DNA of 63,371 nucleotides from an uncultured virus (IMG/VR IMGVR_UViG_3300021399_004696) (taxonomy: Duplodnaviria > Heunggongvirae > Uroviricota > Caudoviricetes), in IMG/VR virus record IMGVR_UViG_3300021399_004696; one strand, written 5' to 3'. Of this stretch, positions 29-63,371 are shown one piece after another. Position numbers and translations under genes: made by a program. Every line of letters begins with the position of its first letter. Positions within the stretch are counted from its first letter, which is position 1. Under the pieces are notes generated by a model. It had not been told where the DNA came from. It saw nothing but the letters and a program-made list of their open reading frames with translations, and did no database searches.

Positions 29-979
29 ATGAAGGATCTTGAGCCTTTCGTTGAAGGTTTGGATGAAAAAGATTCCAAGGCTTTGTTCGATCTGCTCGTA
101 GACAGGGGTATTGACATTATTGAAGAGGATGAGCCTTTGACATATACAGGCAATGACAGCAGCGTAGCCCAATATCTGAAGGAAATGGCACGCTATCCTC
201 TGTTGACCCACGAGGAAGAAATTGACCTGGCAAACAGAGTTCAGGCCGGGGATGAAGAAGCTAAGGAGATCTTAGTTTGCAGCAATCTTCGTCTGGTTGT
301 ATCCATTGCTAAGAAATATACTAACAGGGGTCTGCCTATCCTGGATCTCATACAGGAAGGAAATATAGGTCTTATGAAGGCTGTTTCTTACTTTGATCCA
401 GAAAAAGGATTCCACTTCAGTACTTATGCTACCTGGTGGATCAGGCAGTCTGTTACCAGAGCTATTGCGGACCAGGCCAGAACGATCAGGATTCCTGTTC
501 ATATGGTAGAGCAGATCAATAAGCTTGCCAGAACACAGAGAACTTTAACGCAGACCCTCGGCAGAGAGCCTACGATCGAAGAGCTTGCTGAAGCAACAGG
601 GCATTCAATAGAAAAGATTCAGGACATCCAGAAAGTGTCTCAGGACCCCATCTCTTTGGATATGCCGGTCGGGGAAGACAAAGAAACACCTCTTTCCGAG
701 TTTTTGAGTGTAAACGAAAGCACTTACAGTGCTCCGGATGAAGAAGCAAATCGAGAGGCGTTCAGAGAGGCGCTCAGTAAGAGTATGACTATTCTGTCCG
801 AAAGAGAACAGATCATACTTAATCTGCGTTTCGGTCTGGATGACGGCAGATCGAGAACTTTGGAAGAAGTCGGTAACAGACTTGGAATAACCAGAGAAAG
901 AGTCCGTCAGATAGAAGCAAAAGCTCTTAGAAAGCTTGGCAAGAATTCTCACGCAAGAATACTCCAGGGGTTCTATTAA
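29..979 (+). CDS. rpoD: RpoD/SigA-family sigma-70 factor (probably 5'-truncated by the window edge)
   Basis: Region 2 motifs NLRLVVSIAKKY, DLIQEGNIGLMKAV, FSTYATWWIRQ; region 4.2 RTLEEVG..TRERVRQIEAKALRKL; frame is open upstream to position 2. Confidence 0.93.
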   Translation: MKDLEPFVEGLDEKDSKALFDLLVDRGIDIIEEDEPLTYTGNDSSVAQYLKEMARYPLLTHEEEIDLANRVQAGDEEAKEILVCSNLRLVVSIAKKYTNRGLPILDLIQEGNIGLMKAVSYFDPEKGFHFSTYATWWIRQSVTRAIADQARTIRIPVHMVEQINKLARTQRTLTQTLGREPTIEELAEATGHSIEKIQDIQKVSQDPISLDMPVGEDKETPLSEFLSVNESTYSAPDEEANREAFREALSKSMTILSEREQIILNLRFGLDDGRSRTLEEVGNRLGITRERVRQIEAKALRKLGKNSHARILQGFY

Positions 980-1028
980 GTTGAATTTTGCTTTAAGCAT
1001 TTCATGTAACACGTATAAAAGCGTCATT

Positions 1029-1059
1029 CCGGGCGCTTTTATATTGTCATTTATATATT
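1029..1059 (+). promoter_or_regulatory. CCGGG-N20-TATATT element promoter
   Basis: Member of the recurrent fixed-spacing motif. Confidence 0.55.
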
Positions 1060-1084
1060 GAGATCAAGAAAGGACGGTGTAACA

Positions 1085-1330
1085 ATGTTACAAACACTGA
1101 AAAATATATCATATGAGCGGTTCGGTTCCAATTTAAGACAGGCTTTGGCCAACAACAAAATGTCTGACGAAGATTTCGGAAGATATGTTTTTGATCGCTT
1201 ATATTTTGCCAACGATAAGAAAATATTGGCAGCTAGAAAAGAAATGGTAGAGAGGATGTGTGGGGTGTCCGTCGCAGAAATGGCCGACAAGTCCCGCAGG
1301 ACAGATTTGAATGCTTCGGAAATATCGTGA
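1085..1330 (+). CDS. hypothetical protein
   Basis: ORF with RBS-like AAGGACGG upstream of ATG 1085. Confidence 0.6.
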   Translation: MLQTLKNISYERFGSNLRQALANNKMSDEDFGRYVFDRLYFANDKKILAARKEMVERMCGVSVAEMADKSRRTDLNASEIS

Positions 1331-1331
1331 C

Positions 1332-1805
1332 ATGGGTCTGGATGTCCAGGACATCATATTGACCATTATAGAAAAAGAAACAGACAGAGAGTTGTCGTAC
1401 GAGGAGGTTGTCAGCTTTTTACAGGATCAAGCAGATATTTTTTCTTTAGAATTAATAGATGAATTAAGTAACAGTTCCAATTCAAAAGTGAAAAAACTGG
1501 CCACAAAATGGCAAACAGTTTATAAGCAGATCGTTCGTGTGACGCCTGCTGTTTTTATTGCACGGATTTGGGGTTTGGCTTTGGGGCTTAATTATGAGTC
1601 TTACGAAGAAGAATGCTTGTTTTGTGACCTGGTAGGATATTTGATCTATGAAACTTTATTCCAAAACGGTTATGTTTCAGGAAATCTGCACCAAATAACA
1701 CCTCCGACAGCTAAAGATGAGAGACGCGACATTCAGCTGAAAGTTTATCAAAGAGCTTTTGAAATAGGAAAGCAGATTAAAAGTTTAGAGGAGGTAATTC
1801 GATGA
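1332..1805 (+). CDS. hypothetical protein
   Basis: ORF coupled to dut. Confidence 0.65.
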   Translation: MGLDVQDIILTIIEKETDRELSYEEVVSFLQDQADIFSLELIDELSNSSNSKVKKLATKWQTVYKQIVRVTPAVFIARIWGLALGLNYESYEEECLFCDLVGYLIYETLFQNGYVSGNLHQITPPTAKDERRDIQLKVYQRAFEIGKQIKSLEEVIR

Positions 1806-2242
1806 AAATCAAAAAATTGGCCCCGGATGCGAAGATTCCGGTAAAAGCTACCAGCAGCGCGGCAGGAGTGGATCTGTGTGCATATCTTCCCGAATACGGA
1901 GATAAGGATATTGATATCGAAAGCCATCAAACCATTAAAGTCCCGACCGGGATTGCAGTTGCCATACCGGAAGGCTATGTAGGGCTTATTTTTGCAAGAT
2001 CCGGAACAGCAACTAAAAAAGACCTGGCTCCGGCAAATAAGGTTGGTGTTATCGATTCTGATTACAGAGGTGAACTTATAGTAGCCTTGCACAACCACGG
2101 CAGACGTACACAGAGCTTTAAACATGGTGATCGTATTGCTCAGCTCGTAGTAGTACCCTGTTTGGATTATGAGTTTGAAGAGGTCGATGAGCTTCCTGCA
2201 ACGAACAGAGGAGAAGGGGGGTTCGGTTCCACAGGAGCCTGA
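1802..2242 (+). CDS. dut: trimeric dUTPase
   Basis: AAGVDL, ARSG, GVIDSDYRGE, DRIAQL, RGEGGFGSTG motifs. Confidence 0.96.
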   Translation: MKIKKLAPDAKIPVKATSSAAGVDLCAYLPEYGDKDIDIESHQTIKVPTGIAVAIPEGYVGLIFARSGTATKKDLAPANKVGVIDSDYRGELIVALHNHGRRTQSFKHGDRIAQLVVVPCLDYEFEEVDELPATNRGEGGFGSTGA

Positions 2243-2247
2243 TATAA

Positions 2248-2997
2248 ATGATCGCGCTTACAATCCCCGATATTCACTTAAAACCCGAAATCTTCGATCA
2301 GGCCGACACTATCATGGCTTCAGAACCTACGATAGACAAAGCTGTATGTTTAATGGACATAGCTGACGACTGGGGTAAACAGTTTGATGCAACTTTATAT
2401 GAGCAGACGTTTGCACGCGCCATCAAATTTACACAAGACCACCCCGATACTTTATGGTGTTGGGGCAACCACGATCTGTCGTATCTGTGGAAAAAACACG
2501 AGAGCGGGTACTCAAGCTTTGTTGAAGAGCTGGTCTTTAAAATGCTCCGTAAATTTACACATGTTGCTGCGGATACCCTGGATTATATGCATCTGGTTGA
2601 CAACACTTTATTTGTCCATGGAGGTCTTTCTGACGGCTACGTAAGTTACTATTGTCCTGACGAGTATGACGATCCAAAAGTGGTAGTAGATAAGATAAAC
2701 AATTCTTTCGCTTTAAAAGAATTATGGCTGGAAGATTCTCCTATCTGGCTCCGCCCACAGCTTTATCATCTGCCTATGTACAAGGAAGAATCTCTTCTTC
2801 AAGTTGTTGGCCACACACCCGTTCAAAGAGTGTATAAATGCGGATCGGTTCTTTCATGCGATTCTTTTTCAACGTCTTCAACAGGGCGTCATATAGGGGA
2901 ACAGTGTTTTGTTATTGTTGATACGGTTACTCATGAATGGCAAAAAATAAGTGCTTTGGCTTCTGTGGAATACGCGTTAGAAGGGAAAGAGACTTAA
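2248..2997 (+). CDS. calcineurin-like metallophosphoesterase
   Basis: DIH, GNHD, HGG, GHT motifs. Confidence 0.85.
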   Translation: MIALTIPDIHLKPEIFDQADTIMASEPTIDKAVCLMDIADDWGKQFDATLYEQTFARAIKFTQDHPDTLWCWGNHDLSYLWKKHESGYSSFVEELVFKMLRKFTHVAADTLDYMHLVDNTLFVHGGLSDGYVSYYCPDEYDDPKVVVDKINNSFALKELWLEDSPIWLRPQLYHLPMYKEESLLQVVGHTPVQRVYKCGSVLSCDSFSTSSTGRHIGEQCFVIVDTVTHEWQKISALASVEYALEGKET

Positions 2998-3013
2998 CGA
3001 AAGGAATGGCAAC

Positions 3014-3364
3014 ATGGAAAACGTCACTATATCTAACATCGCCGGGCTTATGATTTTGATTGCATTCGTTTTCTGTTTTACAGCTATCTTAGTCGGGATA
3101 AGAGTGCGCAAGAACAGATCGATATATGTTGCTTTATGTAAGCGTCTCGTATCCCGATACAACAATCAGGAACTCAAAGGTATAACAACGCCCGAAGCGC
3201 TTGCAACAGTCCGTCAAGAGATATTCGAAGCATTGATCATAAGCATGTCTAATCCGGCCCGACTCATGTTTCCGTTTATAGGCAGGCAGGAAATGGATAA
3301 TTTCTTTGCAATAGATGCGGATCTTGAAAGTCCGATAGAGGACTTCATAAAGAAATATTCGTAG
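3014..3364 (+). CDS. hypothetical membrane protein
   Basis: N-terminal hydrophobic helix. Confidence 0.65.
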   Translation: MENVTISNIAGLMILIAFVFCFTAILVGIRVRKNRSIYVALCKRLVSRYNNQELKGITTPEALATVRQEIFEALIISMSNPARLMFPFIGRQEMDNFFAIDADLESPIEDFIKKYS

Positions 3365-3404
3365 GAAAGAAGCAATAATATAAATGTAAAGCTCGGATAT
3401 CATT

Positions 3405-3435
3405 CCGGGCTTTTTTGTATTTTGCGGGCTAGAAT
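3405..3435 (+). promoter_or_regulatory. CCGGG-N20-TAGAAT element promoter
   Basis: Recurrent fixed-spacing motif upstream of RBS AAGGAGG. Confidence 0.65.
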
Positions 3436-3461
3436 CATAAAAATGAAGGAGGTTAGCAACT

Positions 3462-4022
3462 ATGGAACACAAAACACTTAGAAAAGAGATTTTGGAAGTT
3501 ACAGCCCCCAAGCAGCTGATCGTAGGAGACCCTATGTATTTTGATGACGGTTTGGAAGCTAAGCTTTGTTATGTTAATAACAAGCTCCCTAAGGATGCTT
3601 TTGCAGAACTTATTCTCGAAGAGGTTGAATGTTCGTCTAAGATGTTTGGGGATGAAAAAATGACTTTTTCTATGATCGAAGCCTCTTTAATCGTTAGAAA
3701 AAGATCCGTTCAAGGAATCAAGATTCAGGGGGCGCATGAAGAAGGATGTCATATACCTACTTTGGAAAAGGGGGAACAGGTTCTTGGTTGCGATACAGCT
3801 TCATTCGAACTTAATGGTGATGTTTTTCATATCGGCGGTGATGGAGCTTACGGATCTGTTACGGAATATAAGAATAACGAAGCTGTTATTTTAAGCGTGG
3901 CATTCCCGAGCGATCTGTTTGATTTTGATGAGATCAAAAACAGGCTGTCTTCTAACTTTGGGCCTGTCTTGGCAGAAAGAACGATCGTAGAAGCAGTTCC
4001 TGATGTTGATAGGAATCTATAA
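3462..4022 (+). CDS. hypothetical protein (C-terminus DRNL)
   Basis: ORF with strong RBS. Confidence 0.75.
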   Translation: MEHKTLRKEILEVTAPKQLIVGDPMYFDDGLEAKLCYVNNKLPKDAFAELILEEVECSSKMFGDEKMTFSMIEASLIVRKRSVQGIKIQGAHEEGCHIPTLEKGEQVLGCDTASFELNGDVFHIGGDGAYGSVTEYKNNEAVILSVAFPSDLFDFDEIKNRLSSNFGPVLAERTIVEAVPDVDRNL

Positions 4023-4038
4023 TCAATAGGGGGAATGT

Positions 4039-4476
4039 ATGAAAGTTATTGATTTTGATACGGCCGGCAATGTTATAAAGCTGTATTATGGCGCGGACGA
4101 TATAAAAGATTGGCACGGCGATGACTGGAATGATACACCGTATGAACATAATGCAGGAACAGTTTATTCCGAATTTGTAAAACAGTCTTGTGATTATGCG
4201 TTCCCTTTTGGATTTGCGGTTTTAACTCCCGCCACTGACTGGAATTATCAGGGCAATTCTCCGTTTTGTAAAGACGACATGAAGGCACGTAAATGCCCCT
4301 GTCTTGTCATTACTTCACACAAAGACTTTTTTGAAGCATATTCCAAATTGTACGGGGCAGAAGAGTCTGACGAGCTTATTAAGATCTATTTCGGAGATAC
4401 CGATAATGTTGTAGAACAAAAGATCAGAAAGCTCGGGGGTTTACGTATTAATATTGCTTGTGGAGGTGGACGCTGA
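4039..4476 (+). CDS. hypothetical protein
   Basis: ORF containing GDDWNDTPYEHNAG, a motif type seen in phage/MGE proteins. Confidence 0.7.
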   Translation: MKVIDFDTAGNVIKLYYGADDIKDWHGDDWNDTPYEHNAGTVYSEFVKQSCDYAFPFGFAVLTPATDWNYQGNSPFCKDDMKARKCPCLVITSHKDFFEAYSKLYGAEESDELIKIYFGDTDNVVEQKIRKLGGLRINIACGGGR

Positions 4477-5138
4477 TGCAGATAGTATGGCCTACAATAA
4501 GTTCTCAAATGTTTAATGAATATCGAGACCGGTATGAAGAAAGAAGACGTAGCTTTGGGGAAAGAGCCGCACTTCTAAAAGGAACCTTACAGGAACAGAC
4601 CGAAAACGCCAGGAAAGGTCTTATTGGAAACATCATTATCCTGATCGGCACTTGCTTGGTTTATGTTATATTACACAGCTATGCAAGAGATTTTATATCC
4701 AGACGCGCTGACTTTATCTGTGCCTTATTGTATTTTTCAATATCAGTCTTTATTGTCATAAGATCTTTTATGGCTGCAACCAAGATCGAAGCAACAAAAA
4801 ATCAGTTGCGTAATATAAATACGGAAACTACATGTTGTTTAAGTGAGTTTTATCTCTATCATAACGAGGCCGACTTTAATAAGCTTCAGCGGATCTTTAC
4901 GGAAGTTGAGTTTTTGCGAGGCAGTGCCAGCGATGTTGAGATAACCGAAGTAACCTATGATAAAAAAGAAAAAGTATTGTGCCTTATTGGTAAAGGTTGC
5001 CGTTTTAGTTGGGATCTCAGTTTCATCGAGAAAATAGATCAGTACATTACAGATAAATATGCAGAATACTATTTTACTAAAGATACGGCGGATCTGGCGT
5101 TTCTTGATTCTTGTGCATATTTTATCACGCAGGGTTAA
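4476..5138 (+). CDS. hypothetical membrane protein (2 TM)
   Basis: TGATG coupling, two hydrophobic segments. Confidence 0.65.
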   Translation: MQIVWPTISSQMFNEYRDRYEERRRSFGERAALLKGTLQEQTENARKGLIGNIIILIGTCLVYVILHSYARDFISRRADFICALLYFSISVFIVIRSFMAATKIEATKNQLRNINTETTCCLSEFYLYHNEADFNKLQRIFTEVEFLRGSASDVEITEVTYDKKEKVLCLIGKGCRFSWDLSFIEKIDQYITDKYAEYYFTKDTADLAFLDSCAYFITQG

Positions 5139-5141
5139 ATG

Positions 5142-5172
5142 CCGGGACTTTGGTTTCGTTAGTCTTTACAAT
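5142..5172 (+). promoter_or_regulatory. CCGGG-N20-TACAAT element promoter (ssb, possibly read through into the TnpB-CRISPR locus)
   Basis: Recurrent fixed-spacing motif. Confidence 0.65.
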
Positions 5173-5204
5173 TAAACCATAGATAAAACTTAGGAGGTAA
5201 TTCC

Positions 5205-5654
5205 ATGAACAGAGTAATCATTTCAGGCAGGCTTACAAAGGAACCCGAATTAAAGCAGGTGGGAGATGTCTCCAACTGTTCGTTCGCAGTTGCTGTAGAT
5301 CGTAAGTATAAGAACAAGGATGGCGTAAGAGAAGCGGATTTCTTTAACTGTGTTGCCTGGCGTTATCAGGCAGACTTCCTGGCCAGGTATTTCCATAAGG
5401 GCAGCAAGCTCATGCTTGAAGGTACGCTTCAGAGCAGATCTTATGAGAAGAACGGCCAGACAGTGTATGTCACTGAGATTGTAGCAGAACATATCGAGTT
5501 TGCCGAGTCCGCGCCTCAGAAGACAGTAGCAAGCACAGCTCCTACGGCCCCCGCAACGGCTCCGGCAGAAGCACCTGCAGTTCCTGCAGCTCCGGCACCC
5601 GTAGATGCTCCTCCTGAAGAGTTTGGCGCAGAGGATCTGCCTTTCGAACTTTAA
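5205..5654 (+). CDS. ssb: single-stranded DNA-binding protein
   Basis: MNRVIISGRLTKEPEL, ADFFNCVAW, Pro/Ala-rich linker, acidic DLPF tail. Confidence 0.95.
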   Translation: MNRVIISGRLTKEPELKQVGDVSNCSFAVAVDRKYKNKDGVREADFFNCVAWRYQADFLARYFHKGSKLMLEGTLQSRSYEKNGQTVYVTEIVAEHIEFAESAPQKTVASTAPTAPATAPAEAPAVPAAPAPVDAPPEEFGAEDLPFEL

Positions 5655-5739
5655 TAGACCACAATAACCAACGCCTCTAAATTGGGTGATATCATATTTT
5701 ACTCCATTTCCCATGGAAATTGAATTGCGGGGCTTAATT

Positions 5740-6948
5740 ATGATCAGAGCTTATAAGTACAGGATTTATCCTACAGAAGAGCAAGCAAAGCAGATTCGTA
5801 GTAATTGCGGGGCTGCGAGATTTGTATATAATTACGCGCTCGGCTATTTTCTTGAACAACGCAAGAAGGCCGAGGAAAGTAACGGCGAAAAGATATTTTA
5901 TAATAAGTATGAAATGTCAAGGGTCGTTCGTGCCTTAAAGACTTTCACAGACGAAGAAGGGAATCAGCCCTATGCTTGGCTTAACACTATAGATTCTATC
6001 CTGGTCAATTATGCTCTAGGAGATCTTGAGGCCGCATTTAAGAATATCTCTAAAAACGGTGCGGGCTTCCCGAACTTTAAGCGTAAGGGCAACTCTGGCT
6101 CGTATCACACGCAGAATATCAATCACAACATTTGGGTGAACGACGGCTATATCAAGCTGCCGAAGATCGGTCCTATGAAGATTGTTCTCCACAGATCGTT
6201 AGACGGTATCATCAAGAGCGTTATCGTTTCTTACACGGCTTCGGGCAAGTATTACGTCGCTATATCTCAGGATATCCCGGATGAGAAGATACTCGGTACA
6301 AATGCCGGAGGAGAAGTCGGCATAGATGTCGGGATCAAGGAATTCTACTCTGACAGTAACGGCAATGTTGTAGCCAACCCTAAGTTCCTGTCAAAGTCTG
6401 AAAAGAAACTTAAGAAGGAACAACGCAGACTTTCTAAGATGATCGAGAGTCATATTGTTGAATACAGGACCATAGGCGGTAAGCGCTATCCCGTTTATGA
6501 CAAGCCGATTAGCGAGTGCAAGAATATTCAAAAGCAACGTATCAAGCTTGCAAAGATCCACGAGCATATCTCAGCTCAGCGTGAATACCTGCATGATGTC
6601 GAAAGCGCGAAGATTGCCTCTGAAAATGCTCTGGTTTGCATGGAAGACCTCAAGATACAGAACATGCAAAAGAACCATAAGCTCGCAAAGTCAATTGCGG
6701 ATGCCGGCTGGTACAGTTTTAAGTCTAAGGTGGCTTACAAGGTGAAGGATCACGGCGGAGTCCTGGTTTCTGTCGAGACTTTCTTCCCGTCATCCCAGAC
6801 CTGTTCCTGCTGCGGATACCGGAACAAGGGTACCAAGGACTTAAGCGTCCGCAAGTGGACCTGTCCCGAGTGTGGCACGGAACACGACAGAGATGTTAAT
6901 GCCGGAAAGAACATCCTTGCCAGAGGTAAGGAAATATTAAGTGCCTGA
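5740..6948 (+). CDS. tnpB: CRISPR-associated TnpB-family RuvC nuclease, 402 aa (candidate miniature type V effector)
   Basis: AYKYRIYPT N-terminus; RuvC-I GIDVG, RuvC-II MEDL, zinc finger CSCC..CPEC, RuvC-III HDRDVNA; no adjacent tnpA; CRISPR array 145 bp downstream. Confidence 0.9.
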   Translation: MIRAYKYRIYPTEEQAKQIRSNCGAARFVYNYALGYFLEQRKKAEESNGEKIFYNKYEMSRVVRALKTFTDEEGNQPYAWLNTIDSILVNYALGDLEAAFKNISKNGAGFPNFKRKGNSGSYHTQNINHNIWVNDGYIKLPKIGPMKIVLHRSLDGIIKSVIVSYTASGKYYVAISQDIPDEKILGTNAGGEVGIDVGIKEFYSDSNGNVVANPKFLSKSEKKLKKEQRRLSKMIESHIVEYRTIGGKRYPVYDKPISECKNIQKQRIKLAKIHEHISAQREYLHDVESAKIASENALVCMEDLKIQNMQKNHKLAKSIADAGWYSFKSKVAYKVKDHGGVLVSVETFFPSSQTCSCCGYRNKGTKDLSVRKWTCPECGTEHDRDVNAGKNILARGKEILSA

Positions 6949-6949
6949 A

Positions 6950-7093
6950 AAGCACGTTTGAACCTTGATAATCAGACAGTGTAGGGCGGTTGTCTCCCGA
7001 ACACTATAAAACTAAACGCTTACGGAGATTCTAACATCGTAGCCGGTAACGGAGCGAGGTAGTCGAAGAAGTAAGAATTCTGTGTGATTTGAG
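6950..7093 (+). ncRNA. omega-RNA-derived scaffold / putative tracrRNA
   Basis: Blocks GTAGGG..CCCGAAC..AACGCTTACGGA..GAAGTAAGAA are collinear with the IS605 omega-RNA at 62873-62976; ends in CTGTGTGA, complementary to repeat TTGCACAG; boundaries approximate. Confidence 0.7.
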
Positions 7094-7758
7094 GGTTAAC
7101 AGTACGTTGATTTTGCACAGCAGTCAAACTAATGCCGTTGCCCCTTTCTGCAAAGAATGGTTAACAGTACGTTGATTTTGCACAGCAGTCAAACGATTCG
7201 CTTCCTCTTCCTTGGGAGTACGAGGTTAACAGTACGTTGATTTTGCACAGCAGTCAAACCGAGGAATCGAACTGCTATAGAATGATCGGGTTAACAGTAC
7301 GTTGATTTCTCACAGTAGTCAAACTCCCAAATCTCGGGTGGCTTCGCTGATATTGGTTAACAGTACGTTGATTTCTCACAGTAGTTAAACAGTTAATTAA
7401 AACGTATGGCGAAGCTGGTGGGTTAACAGTACGTTGATTTATCACAGTAGTCAAACCCCTTGCGCGCCTTTGCTGTGATGGTGGGAGGTTAACAGTACGT
7501 TGATTTATCACAGTAGTCAAACGTTATGTTTGCATTACATAAGAAGGGCAGGGATTAACAGTACGTTGATTTCTCACAGTAGTCAAACTCTTTGGATTCC
7601 GTTAAGTCTGCCGTTCAGGTTAACAGTACATTGATTTCTCACAGTAGTCAAACCCAAGCCATCATCGATGCAATTCAGGAGAAGATTAACAGTACGTTGA
7701 TTTCTCACAGTAGTCAAACAGCTCCTGAGCTGTCACCGTACCAAATGTGAGTTAACAG
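7094..7758 (+). CRISPR. CRISPR array: 10 full 36-bp repeats (GGTTAACAGTACGTTGATTT[TG/CT/AT]CACAG[C/T]AGTCAAAC), 10 spacers of 29-30 bp, truncated terminal repeat at 7750
   Basis: Repeat starts at 7094, 7159, 7224, 7289, 7355, 7421, 7487, 7553, 7618, 7684; all spacers unique; orientation inferred from the degenerate right end. Confidence 0.97.
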
Positions 7759-7799
7759 ACGTAATCAAGTTCAAGTGGGACACACAGAAAAGCAAACTC

Positions 7800-7830
7800 C
7801 CGGGTGTTTGTGTCCCAAAAATTATAAAAT
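7800..7830 (+). promoter_or_regulatory. CCGGG-N20-TAAAAT element promoter
   Basis: Recurrent fixed-spacing motif. Confidence 0.6.
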
Positions 7831-7867
7831 AATCGTGACGATAGAACACAGAAAAGGAGGGGCGTTT

Positions 7868-8164
7868 ATGTCAAATCAGGATAACACAACGAGCTTGAAA
7901 GTGCTTGGTGGTTCTTTCAGGGCAGAGGTTAATCAGGGAGCAGGGGAGATAGGCATATATTTCAGGACTCAGACCGGTGAAGAGATTGACATCTGCAATA
8001 TTGTTCTAAAGGATAAGTTCGGAAACTATCTGGAGAACAGTTCTAATAAGGTCGCTGCTACCGCGTCAGTATACGTCTTCTCAGATCCTTACAACGAAGA
8101 CTATACGCACAAGGTTAATATTTCGATCAACGAGATAATCAAAGCCGTTACGACCGTAGTATAA
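7868..8164 (+). CDS. hypothetical protein
   Basis: AAGGAGG RBS before ATG 7868. Confidence 0.7.
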   Translation: MSNQDNTTSLKVLGGSFRAEVNQGAGEIGIYFRTQTGEEIDICNIVLKDKFGNYLENSSNKVAATASVYVFSDPYNEDYTHKVNISINEIIKAVTTVV

Positions 8165-8211
8165 CTACACAGCCGCAAACTAAAACAAGCAGGCTTCGTA
8201 CTTCCACAATG

Positions 8212-8532
8212 CTAATTCATCAGTTCAAGTACCTTCAAAGTCCGTTCTTGCTCATCTTCTGACATCTCGGATATTTTCTTTATCAAATTCCTATTCAGTT
8301 TAGATTTTGGAATCAGACCTGCCATTTCATCAAGGCTCACACCACATTTCTTCGCATAGACGATAAAGGTCTGGGCGTTACATTTGTGGACCCCACGCTC
8401 GACACTGCTGATATAGTTTTTGGTCAGTCCTGTCGCATCTGCTATCTCTTGCTGTGTCACCTTTGCTGATTCTCTGTAACGCTGAAGCATCTGTCCGAAC
8501 TGCAATGCTTCGGCATCAATCTTTTCTGCCAT
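8212..8532 (-). CDS. XRE-family HTH regulator (possible R-M controller)
   Basis: VTQQEIADATGLTKNYISSVERG helix-turn-helix; divergent from the MTase. Confidence 0.88.
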   Translation of the reverse strand: MAEKIDAEALQFGQMLQRYRESAKVTQQEIADATGLTKNYISSVERGVHKCNAQTFIVYAKKCGVSLDEMAGLIPKSKLNRNLIKKISEMSEDEQERTLKVLELMN

Positions 8533-8667
8533 CTTTTTGTATCCTATCTCACATATTTATAATTGGAAAATTTTATTTTTCATATATAACAGAGAGCATT
8601 ATAAAGGAATCGTGGTACTGCATGCAATAATTTGTGCAGAAAATACCATTTTAATGTTACTCAATAG

Positions 8668-8696
8668 TTGCATTTACAACATTATAGTAGTATAAT
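8668..8696 (+). promoter_or_regulatory. canonical sigmaA promoter of the MTase operon
   Basis: TTGCAT-17bp-TATAAT. Confidence 0.7.
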
Positions 8697-8814
8697 CACT
8701 AATGGATAGTGATACTATAGTGGTACTGATTTGTCTGTCAGGGGACAGGCGTATTTCTTTACCCTTGGAGTACCACTATACCGTTACTTTATAAGAAAGG
8801 ATGTAACAATAGAT

Positions 8815-9810
8815 ATGGCAGCAAATGCAAATTTACATAAAGCAAAGGATGCGAAGAACGACGAATTCTATACTCAGCTCACAGATGTCAGCAAAGAACT
8901 GATGCATTATAAACCGCATTTTAAGGATAAGATTGTTCTTTGTAACTGTGACGACCCCACTTGGTCTGCTTTTTGGAAATATTTTCATTTGAATTTTAGT
9001 CAGCTTGGTTTAAAGAAGCTGATTTCCACTCATTATGATAAGACAGAACCCACATACAAAATGGTATATGAGGGTGGAGATGACAATGATATTGAAGTAG
9101 GTGTAAAGACTCCGCTTGAGGGTAATGGTGATTTTAGGAATCAGGAGTGTCTTGACCTGTTGGACGAGGCAGATATTGTCGTGACGAACCCGCCGTTTAG
9201 TTTATTCCGTGAGTATGTGGCTGTGTTGATGGAACACGAAAAAAAGTTTCTAATTATCGGGAATATGAACGCTATCACCTATAGAGATTTCTTCCCGTTA
9301 TTATCCTCTAATAAAATTTGGGGTGGCTATGAATTTAATAAAACTATGGAATTTATAATGCCTGATGATTATGTGTTGAAAGGTAAGGCTTATGTTGATT
9401 CCGAAGGTCGTAAACATGGTTTTGTTCCTGCAATATGTTGGTACACAAACATGGATATTGCCAAAAGGCATGAAAAAATAGTTTTATGGAAACACTACAC
9501 ACCTGACGAATATCCGCATTATGAAAATTATGATGCGATAGAGGTTAATAAAACCGCAGAAATACCTGTAGATTATGATGGTATCATGGGTGTTCCTATT
9601 ACATTTTTGGGAGCGTATAATCCTGAACAGTTTGAGATTGTGGGTATGGCACATGGAGACGCTGGGGTAGCATTAGGATTAAAACCTTATCCTCGTGAAT
9701 TAAAAAAATTGAACAAAGGAATGAGAGATGGCGATTTGTATTATATGGAAAATGGTATTCCTGTTCTTCCTTATAGGCGTATCCTTATTCGCAAAAAGAA
9801 AGGATGGTAA
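8815..9810 (+). CDS. adenine-specific DNA methyltransferase, EcoRI family
   Basis: AKNDEFYT, LCNCDDP, GDFR, VVTNPPFS, MGVPITF motifs. Confidence 0.9.
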   Translation: MAANANLHKAKDAKNDEFYTQLTDVSKELMHYKPHFKDKIVLCNCDDPTWSAFWKYFHLNFSQLGLKKLISTHYDKTEPTYKMVYEGGDDNDIEVGVKTPLEGNGDFRNQECLDLLDEADIVVTNPPFSLFREYVAVLMEHEKKFLIIGNMNAITYRDFFPLLSSNKIWGGYEFNKTMEFIMPDDYVLKGKAYVDSEGRKHGFVPAICWYTNMDIAKRHEKIVLWKHYTPDEYPHYENYDAIEVNKTAEIPVDYDGIMGVPITFLGAYNPEQFEIVGMAHGDAGVALGLKPYPRELKKLNKGMRDGDLYYMENGIPVLPYRRILIRKKKGW

Positions 9811-9816
9811 GTAATT

Positions 9817-10962
9817 ATGCAAATCACAGAAACAAAAATTAAAGTATCCGAACTCTGTCAGGGTTATACTGACGATGGTGATGGTGGTGTATATGGTTAT
9901 GATGATGGTAATCATAAGCTGACCATCAGACCTGCGTTTCAGAGAGAGTTTGTGTATAAGGACAAGCAGCGTGATGCTGTTATTGAAACTGTTCGTAAAG
10001 GTTATCCTTTGAATGTAATGTACTGGTCAAAGGTAACTGATACAGAGTTCGAGGTTCTTGATGGGCAGCAGAGAACTATTTCTCTTGGTCAATATCTCAA
10101 CGGAGATTTTGCTATCAAGATAAACGGTAATGATAAGTTCTATCATAATCTTACTGATACTGAAAAGCAGCAGATCAAAGATTATGAGCTGACTATTTAT
10201 ATCTGTGATGGCACAGAAGAAGAAAAACTCGAATGGTTCAAAGTCATCAATATTGCAGGCGAGACTCTTACCAATCAGGAACTTTTGAACGCCACCTACG
10301 CAGGAACATGGCTTGCCGATGCAAAGAATTTCTTCTCCAAGCGTAACTGCGTGGCAGGACAGTTTGCAGCCGGCTACATTAAGGGTAATCCTATCAGACA
10401 GGATTATCTTGAAAAGGCTCTTGCTTGGATTGCAGACCGTGACGGTCTTGAATCGGGCGGCACGTATATGGCTATCCATCAGCACGATGCAGACGCAAAT
10501 GACCTTTGGGTTTACTTTCAGGAAGTTATCGGTTGGGCGAAGCGTATGTTCCCGAACATGAGCAAGAAACTTACCGAGTGTCAGGACTGGGGAATCCTTT
10601 ATAACAAGTATCGTAACAAGCAGTACAACACCAACGAGATGCGTACTCTGATTGACAGGCTTCTTCAGGACGAGGATGTTACAAAGCAGACAGGTATCAT
10701 TCCTTATGTTCTCTCCGACAGACAGAAGCATGACGAGAAGTATCTTTCAATCCGTGCCTTCTCTGAACAGATTAAGCGTAGAGTTTATGAGCGTCAGGGT
10801 CACAAGTGTCCGTTCTGCGTAGCAAATGGTGTTGATACTGAATATGCCTTTGGGGAAATGCAGGGCGACCATATCATTCCTTGGTCACAGGGCGGTAGAA
10901 CAGTTGAAGATAACTGTCAGATGCTTTGTCAGAGGTGTAATAACGATAAGTCTGCACAGTGA
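9817..10962 (+). CDS. DUF262 (GmrSD-like) plus C-terminal HNH endonuclease
   Basis: RPAFQREFVY, DGQQRT; C-terminal CPFC..GDHIIPWSQGG..NCQMLCQRCN. Confidence 0.87.
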   Translation: MQITETKIKVSELCQGYTDDGDGGVYGYDDGNHKLTIRPAFQREFVYKDKQRDAVIETVRKGYPLNVMYWSKVTDTEFEVLDGQQRTISLGQYLNGDFAIKINGNDKFYHNLTDTEKQQIKDYELTIYICDGTEEEKLEWFKVINIAGETLTNQELLNATYAGTWLADAKNFFSKRNCVAGQFAAGYIKGNPIRQDYLEKALAWIADRDGLESGGTYMAIHQHDADANDLWVYFQEVIGWAKRMFPNMSKKLTECQDWGILYNKYRNKQYNTNEMRTLIDRLLQDEDVTKQTGIIPYVLSDRQKHDEKYLSIRAFSEQIKRRVYERQGHKCPFCVANGVDTEYAFGEMQGDHIIPWSQGGRTVEDNCQMLCQRCNNDKSAQ

Positions 10963-61328: not shown

Positions 61329-61736
61329 ATGGATTTTGACACTAATAATCATTCAGTATTCAAATTACATTATCATCTTATTATGTGCGTGAAATATCGT
61401 AATAAAGTTATTACAGATGATATATCTTTGCGACTAAAGAATATTTTTGAATATATTGCGCCTAATTACAATATAGTGTTAGAAGAATGGAATCACGACA
61501 TAGATCATGTACATATACTTTTTAGAGGAGCACCAAATACAGAAATAAGTAAATTTATTAACGCTTATAAGTCTGCGAGTAGCCGACTTATCAAAAAAGA
61601 ATATCCTCAAATACGGAAATCTCTTTGGAAAGAGATGTTCTGGTCGCAGAGCTTTTGTCTTATATCTACGGGAGGAGCAACCACAGATACAATTAAACAA
61701 TATATACAATCGCAGGGCAAGAAAAATGGCAAATAA
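61329..61736 (+). CDS. tnpA: IS200-type Y1 HUH transposase
   Basis: YHLIMCVKYR, DHVHILF, KSASSR, FWSQSF, YIQSQ. Confidence 0.95.
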   Translation: MDFDTNNHSVFKLHYHLIMCVKYRNKVITDDISLRLKNIFEYIAPNYNIVLEEWNHDIDHVHILFRGAPNTEISKFINAYKSASSRLIKKEYPQIRKSLWKEMFWSQSFCLISTGGATTDTIKQYIQSQGKKNGK

Positions 61737-62859
61737 AGCAATTAAGTTCAGATTATATCCGACTTCCGAGCAAGAAGTTATATTTGCCAAAACTTTCGGT
61801 TGTTGTCGAAAGATCTATAATCTGATGCTTGAAGATAAGATTGCATTATACAGGAATAATAAAACTTTTGGTAAGCAAACCCCGGCTATGTATAAAACAA
61901 CATATCCTTTTCTTAAAGAAGTAGACAGCCTTGCGCTTGCTAATGTTCAGTTAAATTTGCAAAGTGCTATGAGAAATTGCTTTGATAAGAAACGCAAAAA
62001 GAAAAATGGCTTCCCTAAATTCAGATCATCAAAGCATAGTCGTAAATCCTATACCACCAATAATCAAAATGGCACTATTGCAATAATTGATAATAGGTAT
62101 ATCAAACTCCCCAAAATTGGAGAAGTCAAAGCAGTAATTCATAGAGAACCTGAGTTAGACTGGATAATTAAGTCTGCCACTATATCACAGGATAGTAATG
62201 GAAAGTTTTATGCATCTATTTTGTTTGAGTTTGATAAGACAATCGCTAAAGTTCCTATATCTGACAATGCTATTGGGTTGGATTATGCTTCTGATGGATT
62301 ATATGTTGATGATAATGGAAACATAGGTTCTAATCATAAATTCTACAAAGAAAGTCATAAGAAACTTGCTAAAGAACAGAGAAGATTGTCCAGAAGAGTA
62401 GGTTCTAAAAAGAACTCGGTGAAATCTAATAACTATCTAAAGCAGCTTCGCAAGGTAAATAAGATACATAAGCATATCGCAAATCAGCGTTTGGATAATC
62501 TTCACAAGAAGTCAACTGCGATAGCCAAGCAGTATGATGTTGTTTGTGTTGAAAGTCTGAATATGAAGTCTATGTCAAATAAAGGTTTTGGTAATGGGAA
62601 AGCCACTATGGATAACGGTTATGGTATGTTTCTTAATATGCTTGAATACAAATTAGCAGAAAGAGGAAAATACTTTGTCAAGGTTGATAAGTGGTTTCCA
62701 TCTAGTCAATTGTGTCATTGTTGTGGAACTCTGCACAAAGAAATGAAAGACTTATCCATCAGGACTTTGCGATGCGCGTGTGGTACAGTGATTAGCCGTG
62801 ATCAAAATGCCGCTATAAACATCAGAAATGAAGGGTTGCGGATATTAAATTCTGCATAA
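61726..62859 (+). CDS. tnpB: TnpB RNA-guided endonuclease
   Basis: GLDYA, VCVESL, CHCC..CAC, RDQNAAINI. Confidence 0.95.
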   Translation: MANKAIKFRLYPTSEQEVIFAKTFGCCRKIYNLMLEDKIALYRNNKTFGKQTPAMYKTTYPFLKEVDSLALANVQLNLQSAMRNCFDKKRKKKNGFPKFRSSKHSRKSYTTNNQNGTIAIIDNRYIKLPKIGEVKAVIHREPELDWIIKSATISQDSNGKFYASILFEFDKTIAKVPISDNAIGLDYASDGLYVDDNGNIGSNHKFYKESHKKLAKEQRRLSRRVGSKKNSVKSNNYLKQLRKVNKIHKHIANQRLDNLHKKSTAIAKQYDVVCVESLNMKSMSNKGFGNGKATMDNGYGMFLNMLEYKLAERGKYFVKVDKWFPSSQLCHCCGTLHKEMKDLSIRTLRCACGTVISRDQNAAINIRNEGLRILNSA

Positions 62860-62864
62860 CTTCA

Positions 62865-63020
62865 ACCATATGGTAGGGTTGGAGCAACCCGAACCTAACG
62901 CCTGTGGACATTGTGTAAGACGCAGATTATAGTAATTTCTATGAGATGCGCAGTAGTGGTTGAAGCAGGAAGCTCCGACTTCTATAAGTCGGGGTAGTTC
63001 ACATAAGAGTTTGATACTGT
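62865..63020 (+). ncRNA. omega-RNA (reRNA) of the IS605 TnpB, guide from 63003
   Basis: GTAGGG..CCCGAAC..ACGCCTGTGGA..TGAAGCAGGAAGC..hairpin..GTTCAC; boundaries approximate. Confidence 0.75.
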
Positions 63021-63153
63021 TTTAAATATCTTATCTAAAGTTTCCTGAGACGCTTCCTTTGCCGGAGGCGTTTTGATTTTAAGGGCATTTTCAGATTCTG
63101 CAGAGATAATTTTCAGCAGTCATAGCGACCTCTTCTCTCCGTTGAAAGTCTTC

Positions 63154-63371
63154 TCGAAGACGAATTGCATTGAACTTAAAGTTCAACGTTAACAGACCAT
63201 TAAACTTCGAGGTAAACAAGGACTCAATACCCTCAATTCGAGAGTATTTACTTGATATTGGATCGGAGTTCTACATGATTTTTCCTGTCGAAGACGAATT
63301 GTATTGAACTTTAAGTTCAACGGTAACAGACCATTAAACTTTGAGGTAAACAAGGACTCAATATCCTCAAT
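63154..63371. repeat. tandem direct repeat, 134-bp period, truncated by the window end
   Basis: 63154-63237 vs 63288-63371: 79/84 identical; each unit has palindrome TTGAACT-N3-AGTTCAA. Confidence 0.85.

Follow-up and report, generated by a model that had tools for sequence, protein, structure and literature searches.

How is a TnpB-like nuclease guided when its gene is followed by a CRISPR array? The question is raised by a locus in a 63,371-nucleotide record of an uncultured virus (IMG/VR IMGVR_UViG_3300021399_004696; Caudoviricetes), which was analysed over its whole length and is referred to below as the window. About 145 nt of non-coding DNA lie between the TGA of a TnpB-like effector gene and the array, and a preliminary description, made without database searches, had taken this intergenic region for a TnpB omega-RNA whose 3′ hairpin arm is supplied by the CRISPR repeat. 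Our analysis leads to much the same answer. With a probability of roughly 0.8, and as far as sequence and comparative anatomy go, we regard the locus as a system of the TranC (transposon-CRISPR intermediate) type, resembling type V-U, in which a domesticated TnpB uses an omega-RNA that has been split in two. Coordinates of the features are collected in Table 1.

The effector aligns as a full-length TnpB homologue. ISDra2 TnpB matches it from end to end (E 1e-57), Pfam recognises HTH_OrfB_IS605, OrfB_IS605 and Cas12f1-like_TNB domains, and NCBIfam, which names it a TnpB family protein, scores it at 297 bits with guided_TnpB (cut-off 100) and at 379 bits with IS200_TnpB (cut-off 425). It carries a CxxC...CxxC motif, and in the alignment its D196, E302 and D385 stand opposite D191, E278 and D361 of ISDra2 TnpB, which we take to be the RuvC catalytic residues (a D/E/D triad); the protein is presumably an active nuclease. 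The three residues are invariant in 16 of 16 members of the effector's clade, which comprises 16 clusters (P0001–P0016, 89–51% identity) from public data on contigs of up to 235 kb. Although an in-frame GTG at 5686, with no stop codon in between, would allow an alternative product of 420 residues, the closest relatives (P0001–P0003) have 402. The clade differs from its insertion sequence (IS)-type relatives of 46–48% identity by two small N-terminal (REC) insertions. A larger "bridge-helix" insertion, defined relative to ISDra2, was considered as a mark of the CRISPR-linked clade and dropped because IS-type relatives have it too. With the TnpB of an IS605 element near the other end of the window the effector shares 35% identity. 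PADLOC Cas12f models score it at up to 192.8 bits and that ordinary IS605 TnpB at up to 170.5 bits, and Cas12f chains in the PDB match it weakly (E 5e-7 to 3e-4).

The intergenic region is recognisably a homologue of the IS605-family omega-RNAs, for which the intact IS605 provides a reference within the same window. GTAGGG (6981–6986 on the CRISPR side, 62873 in the IS605) and CCCGAAC (6996–7002 and 62888) are common to both, ACG-CTTAC-GGA (CTTAC at 7019–7023) corresponds to ACG-CCTGT-GGA of the IS, and GAA-GTAAG-AA (GTAAG at 7071–7075) to GAA-GCAGG-AA; these are the motifs listed in the preliminary description, and all can be read directly in the sequence at these positions. A covariance model (CM R1) was built from six IS-type omega-RNAs, collected from public contigs downstream of tnpB homologues (the window's IS605, L002, L003, L087, L092 and L230), with the CRISPR side left out; its consensus fold has compensatory changes at 15 of 29 pairs. 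Such an alignment had been suggested at the outset as a check on the omega-RNA claim, and the model matches 6942–7110 at 32.3 bits (E about 2e-8), the only other match at E≤10 in the 63 kb being the IS605 omega-RNA itself (114.3 bits). A sequence-only nhmmer search recovers 6975–7091 (E 1.1e-7) and a related stretch on the metagenome contig L219 (E 7.1e-7). The resemblance exceeds what chance would be expected to give, and the omega-RNA claim is upheld. Rfam at gathering thresholds detects no family anywhere in the window.

The wider family comprises 78 covariance-model matches from 74 sources, downstream of tnpB homologues. In 53 IS-type rows, which exclude the window and whose alignment is fitted to the model and so favours the structure, 91.4% of cells are paired, compared with 69.1% in shuffles and 41–46% with slid partners. 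Compensatory changes on both sides occur at 27 of the 29 pairs in these 53 sequences. The CUUAC/GUAAG stem, which had been noticed earlier as covarying, is helix 2 of the family, 97% paired in the 53 IS-type omega-RNAs and with compensatory changes at four of its five pairs. In the scaffold it forms stem 2 (7019–7023 with 7071–7075), preceded by hairpin 1 (GUGU-A-GGG...CCC-GA-ACAC, 6979–7004) and accompanied by an inner helix and a variable stem 3; the minimum free energy (MFE) fold of 6979–7129 reproduces the family helices. The 3′ end of the scaffold is an unpaired 5′ arm; 6979 is a putative 5′ end, the model alignment beginning at 6942. On a 4.9-kb contig of another organism, from an RNA library of a different study (X19), only a 55-nt core matches 6977–7031, with four differences; that contig diverges on both sides, and the scaffold core is thus more widely conserved than its flanks.

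What the scaffold lacks is the end of an omega-RNA. In the family, the 3′ module runs from GAAGCAAGAAUC into a hairpin such as CCCCGGC-UUUA-GCCGUGGGG, then into the tail AGUGUCAA and the guide; in a second subgroup GAAGC leads into the hairpin, followed by UAGUUCAC or UAGUUCAA and the guide. The sequence past the tail varies from copy to copy, as befits a guide. A closed hairpin, a tail and variable sequence are found in all of the 52 distinct IS-type 3′ modules listed, with UUUA as the consensus tetraloop of this hairpin (stem 4 in ISDra2 terms), and closed hairpin and tail are kept in the nearest IS-type relatives of the effector, L012 (46%) and L149 (49%), as well as in L040 (54% identity over the C-terminal part). 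The window's IS605 has CUCCGACUU-CUAU-AAGUCGGGG, then the tail UAGUUCAC, with stem 4 closed. A single-molecule omega-RNA with a closed terminal hairpin, as is characteristic of IS200/IS605 elements, is present at 62860–63004 and absent at 6942–7110, where CM R1 fits up to GAAGUAAGAA, finds the local terminal hairpin missing and marks the stem-4 pairs as non-standard.

The missing part lies in the repeats. The scaffold ends in GAAGUAAGAAUU-CUGUGUGA-UUUGAG, with repeat 1 immediately behind and only 6 nt between the 5′ arm (CTGTGTGA in DNA letters) and that repeat. The arm directly follows GAAUU, whereas IS-type omega-RNAs begin the hairpin after GAAUC or GAAGC. Repeats 1–3 read GGTTAACAGTACGTTGATTTTGCACAGCAGTCAAAC, with the anatomy GGUUAACAGUACGUUGA-UUUU-GCACAG-CAGUCAAAC, and every repeat closes with 20 nt made up of a remnant of the loop, then the 3′ arm, then the tail (C/U)AGUCAAAC. 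In repeats 4–10, CTC or ATC replaces TGC at positions 21–23 and T replaces C at position 28. The repeat tail CAGUCAAAC is homologous to the family tail, AGUGUCAA or UAGUUCAC, that abuts the guide.

The two arms were compared in a register fixed by homology, the 8 nt after GAAUU against the 8 nt before the 9-nt repeat tail. Pairing is 8/8 in three repeats (repeats 1–3, with six Watson-Crick and two G·U pairs), 7/8 in five and 6/8 in two. Only 0.014% of the window's 8-mers (1.4e-4) reach 8/8 against the repeat arm and 0.17% (1.7e-3) reach 7/8, and in a scan of the scaffold over 6940–7087 the 5′ arm is the only 8-mer at 8/8. All ten repeats retain the CACAG core of the arm together with the tail, the one exception being a C>U change within repeat 5's tail. 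In an energy model, and provided that the RNA begins at 6979, the cis fold of 6979–7129 closes the split stem with pair probabilities of 0.87–0.98; when the scaffold is paired with the repeat 4 or repeat 6 unit, the MFE dimer contains CUGUG:CACAG. A short model of stem 4 and tail (R2, from 42 IS-type sequences) matched 7061–7102 at 16.4 bits and L219 at 470–500 at 20.6 bits, each through its 5′ part alone, the window hairpin being skipped; as it could not bridge a 25-nt insert, R2 says nothing either way on the split stem.

Table 1. Positions of the features discussed, as numbered in the window.
Feature	Position	Strand	Basis or remark
TnpB-like effector gene, 402 amino acids from ATG 5740	5740..6948	+	Pfam, NCBIfam, ISDra2 TnpB match
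CTTGATAAT, conserved in the window and L219	6964..6972	+	-10-like element (GATAAT) or RNA pairing element
Omega-RNA-derived scaffold, tracrRNA-like	6979..7093	+	CM R1, nhmmer, MFE fold
Stem 4 (ISDra2 naming), 5′ arm of the split last hairpin, CUGUGUGA	7080..7087	+	Family 3′ modules, 8-mer scan
CRISPR array, 10 repeats of 36 nt, spacers 29–30 nt, spacing 65–66 nt	7094..7719	+	
3′ arm UUGCACAG (7113–7120) and tail CAGUCAAAC (7121–7129)	7113..7129	+	Repeat 1; positions 20–36 of every repeat
Truncated 11th repeat AGTTAACAGACGT, 5′ half only, without arm or tail	7750..7762	+	Compared with repeats
Intact IS605: tnpA 61329–61736, tnpB 61726–62859, omega-RNA about 62860–63004	61329..63004	+	

The arrangement recurs in L219, a 1234-bp contig whose gene end is 72% identical to the effector over the C-terminal 103 residues. 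In the window and in L219, the one CRISPR-linked relative examined, the array lies directly 3′ of the gene on the same strand, with ten repeats in the former, the first of them 146 nt past the stop codon, and four degenerate ones in the latter. The L219 scaffold shares CTTGATAAT, ACAGTGTAGGG and CCCGAACACTATAA with that of the window, and its stem 2, CCUGC/GCAGG against CUUAC/GUAAG, differs by two compensatory changes. Stem 2 is followed by CUGUGUAA, GAUUUGAG and then the four repeats; the 5′ arm CUGUGUAA pairs at 7/8 with UUACACUG or UUACACAA in all four. Conservation in these repeats is confined to their 3′ halves (..UUUUACACUGUUGUCAAAC). The correspondence with the family 3′ module, the pairing in fixed register and the layout of L219 all point to the hairpin arm and tail residing in the CRISPR repeat, as first proposed.

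Searches for further CRISPR-linked relatives yielded little. Viral contigs, queried with the effector, the clade alignment and P0016, gave only relatives of 30–52% identity or nothing, the best match among genome contigs was 46% identical, and the phage and plasmid collections contained no relative. Among the matches listed from a search of metagenome contigs with generic patterns, L219 and L220 alone exceed 50% identity. Pattern searches yielded two chance matches in coding DNA for the repeat 5′ half, nine stretches for the scaffold, one of them (L230) a true omega-RNA, and 44 single matches for the repeat 3′ half, none with an omega-RNA. L220 (453–1270) and L147 (1–480) are a contrast case: a TnpB gene is followed by an intact omega-RNA with closed hairpin and tail AGUGUCAA, and an array of unrelated repeats (..ATCTCGCG..ATGCGGGAAATGAAAG) lies 250–400 nt away, so that each is probably an IS inserted beside the array of another system. 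A further layout is seen in the IMG/VR contig L141 (767–1150), where a TnpB-like gene (37% identity over residues 136–402) precedes an omega-like scaffold (GCCUGUGGACA...GAUGAAGCAGGAAGC) and four 37-nt repeats, CTAGCAATTTACATAAAGATAAGATGTAGATTGCCAC. A stretch of this scaffold, AAAUUGCUA, can pair with the beginning of the repeat, and the L141 repeat contains the whole hairpin (CAAUUUACAU/AUGUAGAUUG) and a tail, CCAC; its split point therefore seems to differ from that of the window.

Several results weigh against a split omega-RNA working in the way this anatomy suggests. The cis construct is no more stable than its shuffles (z-score 0.00), whereas the IS605 omega-RNA folds far better than its own (z −4.27). 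Co-folding, the check that had been suggested for the split hairpin, bears it out for 6979–7129 and fails to do so once 6955–6978 are included, when the probability of the split stem drops to 0.08 and other pairings compete. In seven of the ten repeats the trans duplex amounts to five contiguous pairs and one or two more. The arm changes between the window and L219 are one-sided (G·U to A-U, U·G to U-A), with no double compensation and a single relative to compare; the MFE fold of L219 lacks the split stem, and its cis construct has a z-score of −0.86. Each set of ten repeats would also be made with a single scaffold, unless the latter has a promoter or terminator to itself, and the promoter match is weak and at chance level: the scan found CTGAAA-16-GATAAT, with 9 of 12 positions matching, and such matches numbered 4 where shuffles led us to expect 5.1.

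Data from RNA libraries bear on transcription, in the form of contigs that do not show ends, strand or level and to which DNA may have contributed. In X19, contigs cover 6990–7185 at a depth of 112.6 and 6990–7120 at 27.7, with 13.4 for a contig of the gene; the uncovered parts and the shared end at 6990 are assembly features, not RNA ends. One X19 contig links the scaffold, by way of repeat 1 and a differing spacer, to repeat 2, and in the X19 relative a T>C change at 7114 converts the G7086·U7114 pair to G-C. Two RNA libraries of the study that best holds the DNA (X8 and X7) contain array units at 100% identity. We take these contigs as no more than a hint that the locus is transcribed. Directly 5′ of the omega-RNA core, L002 (4240–4290) and L003 (4060–4110) each have a perfect sigma-70 promoter, TTGACA-17-TATAAT, which suggests that these omega-RNAs are transcribed on their own from the GUAGGG hairpin. 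Pairing of the tail with CUUGAC-like motifs upstream in the same two contigs was considered and dropped, the motif being the -35 element of that canonical promoter. At 6941–6955, across the effector stop codon, lies a hairpin, GUGC-CUGAAAA-GCAC, which a scan rates as terminator-like on the minus strand and which is not conserved in L219.

With these observations in mind, we propose the following scheme. Behind the gene, the DNA encodes the scaffold as far as the last hairpin's 5′ arm, and the 3′ 20 nt of each repeat would supply the other half. Transcription of scaffold and array as one RNA would begin at the upstream gene or at a weak promoter with GATAAT at 6967–6972 as its -10 element, and the transcript would then be processed. 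Closing the hairpin with repeat 1 in cis would give an omega-RNA-like single guide for spacer 1, while for spacers 2–10 the scaffold would pair with the repeat in trans through CUGUG:CACAG and flanking pairs. The scaffold acting in trans as the tracrRNA, or trans-activating CRISPR RNA, for the CRISPR RNAs (crRNAs), and scaffold, repeat 1 and spacer 1 forming a natural single guide, had both been suggested at the start, and both are reasonable inferences from the sequence. In the pseudoknot we would place the conserved ..GUCAA tail beside the GA of CCCGAAC, next to hairpin 1, which by homology with ISDra2 should be its partner; GA and tail bases are invariant and show no covariation. The 402-residue nuclease would then cut DNA matching the spacer.

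Could the single guide in cis be the whole story? In that case scaffold, repeat 1 and spacer 1 would form the sole guide, with an enlarged stem-4 loop, there would be no tracrRNA acting in trans, and the downstream units would be inert duplications or a reservoir for recombination. The scaffold abutting repeat 1 across 6 nt, the full pairing of the cis stem and the better fit of repeats 1–3 beside weaker pairing in seven of ten, the one scaffold per ten repeats with no convincing separate promoter or terminator, and the X19 contig that runs through scaffold and repeat 1 into repeat 2 are all compatible with this. We nevertheless consider it quite improbable, as the CACAG core and tail are maintained throughout the array and the conservation of the repeat 3′ halves in L219, with drift in the 5′ halves, argues for selection on every unit; moreover, published TranC systems, in the passages that describe them, use a crRNA and a tracrRNA (10.64898/2026.03.27.714800, PMC13565253). 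The scaffold might instead engage the repeats mainly through its 5′ region, 6955–6976 (GUUUGAACCUUGAUAAUCAG), which would form a longer, interrupted duplex with the 3′ two-thirds of the repeat in the style of a classical tracrRNA. The lowest-energy duplexes of 6900–7093 with the repeats do fall at 6955–6988 (−12.9 to −15.3 kcal/mol, compared with −10.3 at 7074–7093), AAUCAG:UUGAUU pairs at 6/6 in all ten repeats (in L219, AAUUGC pairs at 5, 6, 5 and 5 of 6), and CTTGATAAT is conserved in L219. UUGAU can also pair with GUCAA of the repeat at 5/5 in all ten window repeats and at 5, 5, 5 and 4 of 5 in L219. Yet the pairings of this region came out of a search instead of being predicted, 7.4% of window 6-mers reach at least 5/6 at a fixed register, and nothing in the family alignment corresponds to this region; it may be promoter DNA and not RNA, the same place in L002 and L003 being occupied by the perfect promoter. 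The preliminary description had also pointed to GTTTGA at 6956–6961 as complementary to the end of the repeat. The complementarity to the last 6 nt (TCAAAC) is present in nine of ten repeats, with one G·U in repeat 5, but the motif is absent from L219 and is not the pseudoknot partner expected from ISDra2. A main anti-repeat in this region would, in addition, offer no reason for the scaffold to end precisely with the 5′ arm, and we judge it unlikely.

That the two parts have nothing to do with each other, a dead omega-RNA remnant having come to lie beside the array of another CRISPR-Cas system or of none, is very improbable. Chance neighbours do occur, as L220 and L147 with their intact omega-RNAs near unrelated repeats illustrate; no cas1, cas2 or cas4 was seen; and no protospacer was found for the ten spacers, a comparison of the array region with the phage collection giving two weak chance matches only at E≤10, and a search of the window and L001–L233 allowing up to five mismatches giving none. 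Mere adjacency, however, would not place at the 3′ end of the repeat, in register, a homologue of exactly the piece that the scaffold lacks, nor would it be expected to recur in L219. The intact catalytic residues, the conservation of the clade from 89% to 51% identity across its 16 clusters and the presence of the locus in runs of 13 studies also speak against decay.

A more specific version of the split omega-RNA, which we put forward tentatively and think possible but doubtful, is that we are looking at a CRISPR array at birth. The scaffold would be fused to repeat 1, the primary transcript would be an omega-RNA guided by spacer 1, the array would have arisen by tandem duplication of a unit of loop remnant, 3′ arm, tail and guide, and the effector would use both cis and trans modes. 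The UUUG after the scaffold arm and the UUUU before the repeat arm, set beside the UUUA tetraloop of the family, fit this, as does an effector that differs from mobile TnpBs (46–48%) only by the two small REC insertions. Repeats 1–3 having co-evolved with the scaffold (8/8) while older units drifted (6–7/8) would fit as well, and the second repeat:scaffold helix, UUGAUU:AAUCAG, may replace stem 1. As an observation on the array itself, repeats 1–3 (7094–7259) are mutually identical, fit the scaffold arm best and differ from repeats 4–10 (7289–7719); the first three may have evolved together with the scaffold, or the array may be a recombined one.

Jin et al., in Cell in 2025, are said to have named TranC and to have shown the splitting of a right-end RNA into tracrRNA and crRNA. 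In the part of a later report seen here, TranCs are presented as transposon-CRISPR intermediates whose right-end RNA is split into these two molecules, and the phrase "functional RNA splitting" is already in print (10.64898/2026.03.27.714800, PMC13565253); the abstract of 10.1101/2025.09.28.678669 also describes TranC. To judge from those excerpts, our locus resembles TranC in its TnpB-sized nuclease adjoining a CRISPR array without adaptation genes and in a guide RNA derived from the transposon right end, or omega-RNA, and split into tracrRNA and crRNA; the reported repeats of 32–38 nt, arrays of 3–20 repeats and occurrence of some systems on phages (10.64898/2026.03.27.714800) are comparable to what is found here. 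LaTranC matches the effector in the C-terminal part only (residues 256–400, E 8e-37), whereas ISDra2 TnpB matches it over its full length, and the effector is therefore not of LaTranC's clade. The supplements of Jin et al. may already list the effector's clade.

Altae-Tran et al. (2023) described 40 V-U branches with the array downstream of the gene and, in the passages available, suggested that V-U arrays may arise by serial duplication of omega-RNA segments (PMC10691335). The likeness of our locus to V-U6 to V-U45, as these are excerpted, lies in a TnpB-like protein, a downstream array and the lack of cas1, cas2 and cas4; those subtypes are defined by a protein tree, whereas the effector is likened to them by gene layout (PMC10691335). 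With ISDra2 the locus has in common full-length protein homology, stems 2, 3 and 4 and a short pseudoknot tail by the guide. In the relevant passages of Nakagawa et al. (2023), the UUUA tetraloop of stem 4 joins "tracrRNA-like" and "crRNA-like" parts, the pseudoknot being built from a few bases ahead of the guide (PMC10097598). ISDra2 differs in having one RNA with stem 4 closed and a single guide from the transposon flank, as excerpted from the same source, whereas our locus has an open stem 4, whose 3′ half occurs in ten copies followed by different spacers. Cas12f (type V-F) likewise combines a miniature effector with a long structured tracrRNA. The window scaffold can be aligned in sequence to omega-RNAs, and NCBIfam calls the effector a TnpB; Cas12f tracrRNAs are not known to be alignable in this way. 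The Cas12f repeat:anti-repeat helices are described, in the part of the ISDra2 report consulted, as occupying pseudoknot and stem-4-like positions (PMC10097598). The locus is thus a further natural example of transposon-to-CRISPR intermediates already described, the principle being known and the member new.

As regards its setting, no tnpA and no Y1_Tnp domain (Pfam) was found among the 16 open reading frames (ORFs) scanned around 29–10962; the sole Y1_Tnp of the window is at 61329–61736, in the IS605, which also carries TnpB domains. Upstream of the effector is a single-stranded DNA-binding protein (SSB), and downstream are a helix-turn-helix regulator and a type II methyltransferase–endonuclease pair, with an ORF of unknown function also adjacent. 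The methyltransferase of this restriction-modification pair (8731–10962, 1 kb 3′ of the array) is an EcoRI-like adenine methyltransferase (Pfam E 2.4e-128), whereas GmrSD_N and HNH domains are found in the endonuclease (PADLOC REase_II, E 6e-123); together with the array the pair makes up a small defence cluster on the element. The window also encodes a sigma factor, a dUTPase, a clamp, helicases, a primase, an anti-restriction protein and an integrase, with no structural genes among its encoded functions, and in its overall content resembles a large phage or plasmid-like element. A 2-kb stretch of the locus is present in runs of 13 studies, all of animal gut or rumen by their records, and the locus is placed on a mobile element of ruminant-gut bacteria. 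Just beyond the end of the IS605, at 63140–63371, two copies of a unit of about 130 nt (..CGAAGACGAATTGNATTGAACTTNAAGTTCAACG.TAACAGACCATTAAACTT.GAGGTAAACAAGGACTCAATA.CCTCAAT) run off the window.

In conclusion, the locus offers an unusually legible example of an omega-RNA becoming a tracrRNA and CRISPR repeats. The split maps at base resolution to the loop of stem 4, the natural linker of the ISDra2 RNA as the excerpted report presents it (PMC10097598), and the particular value of the locus lies in a scaffold that can be aligned to transposon omega-RNAs, that is fused to repeat 1 and that has an intact IS605 as internal reference in the same 63 kb. With an effector of only 402 residues, close to mobile TnpBs, it is also a candidate compact editor with multiplex guides. 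The nearby type II restriction-modification pair suggests that the locus may serve in conflicts between mobile elements. The current picture is unchanged; to it the locus adds a member and anatomical detail.

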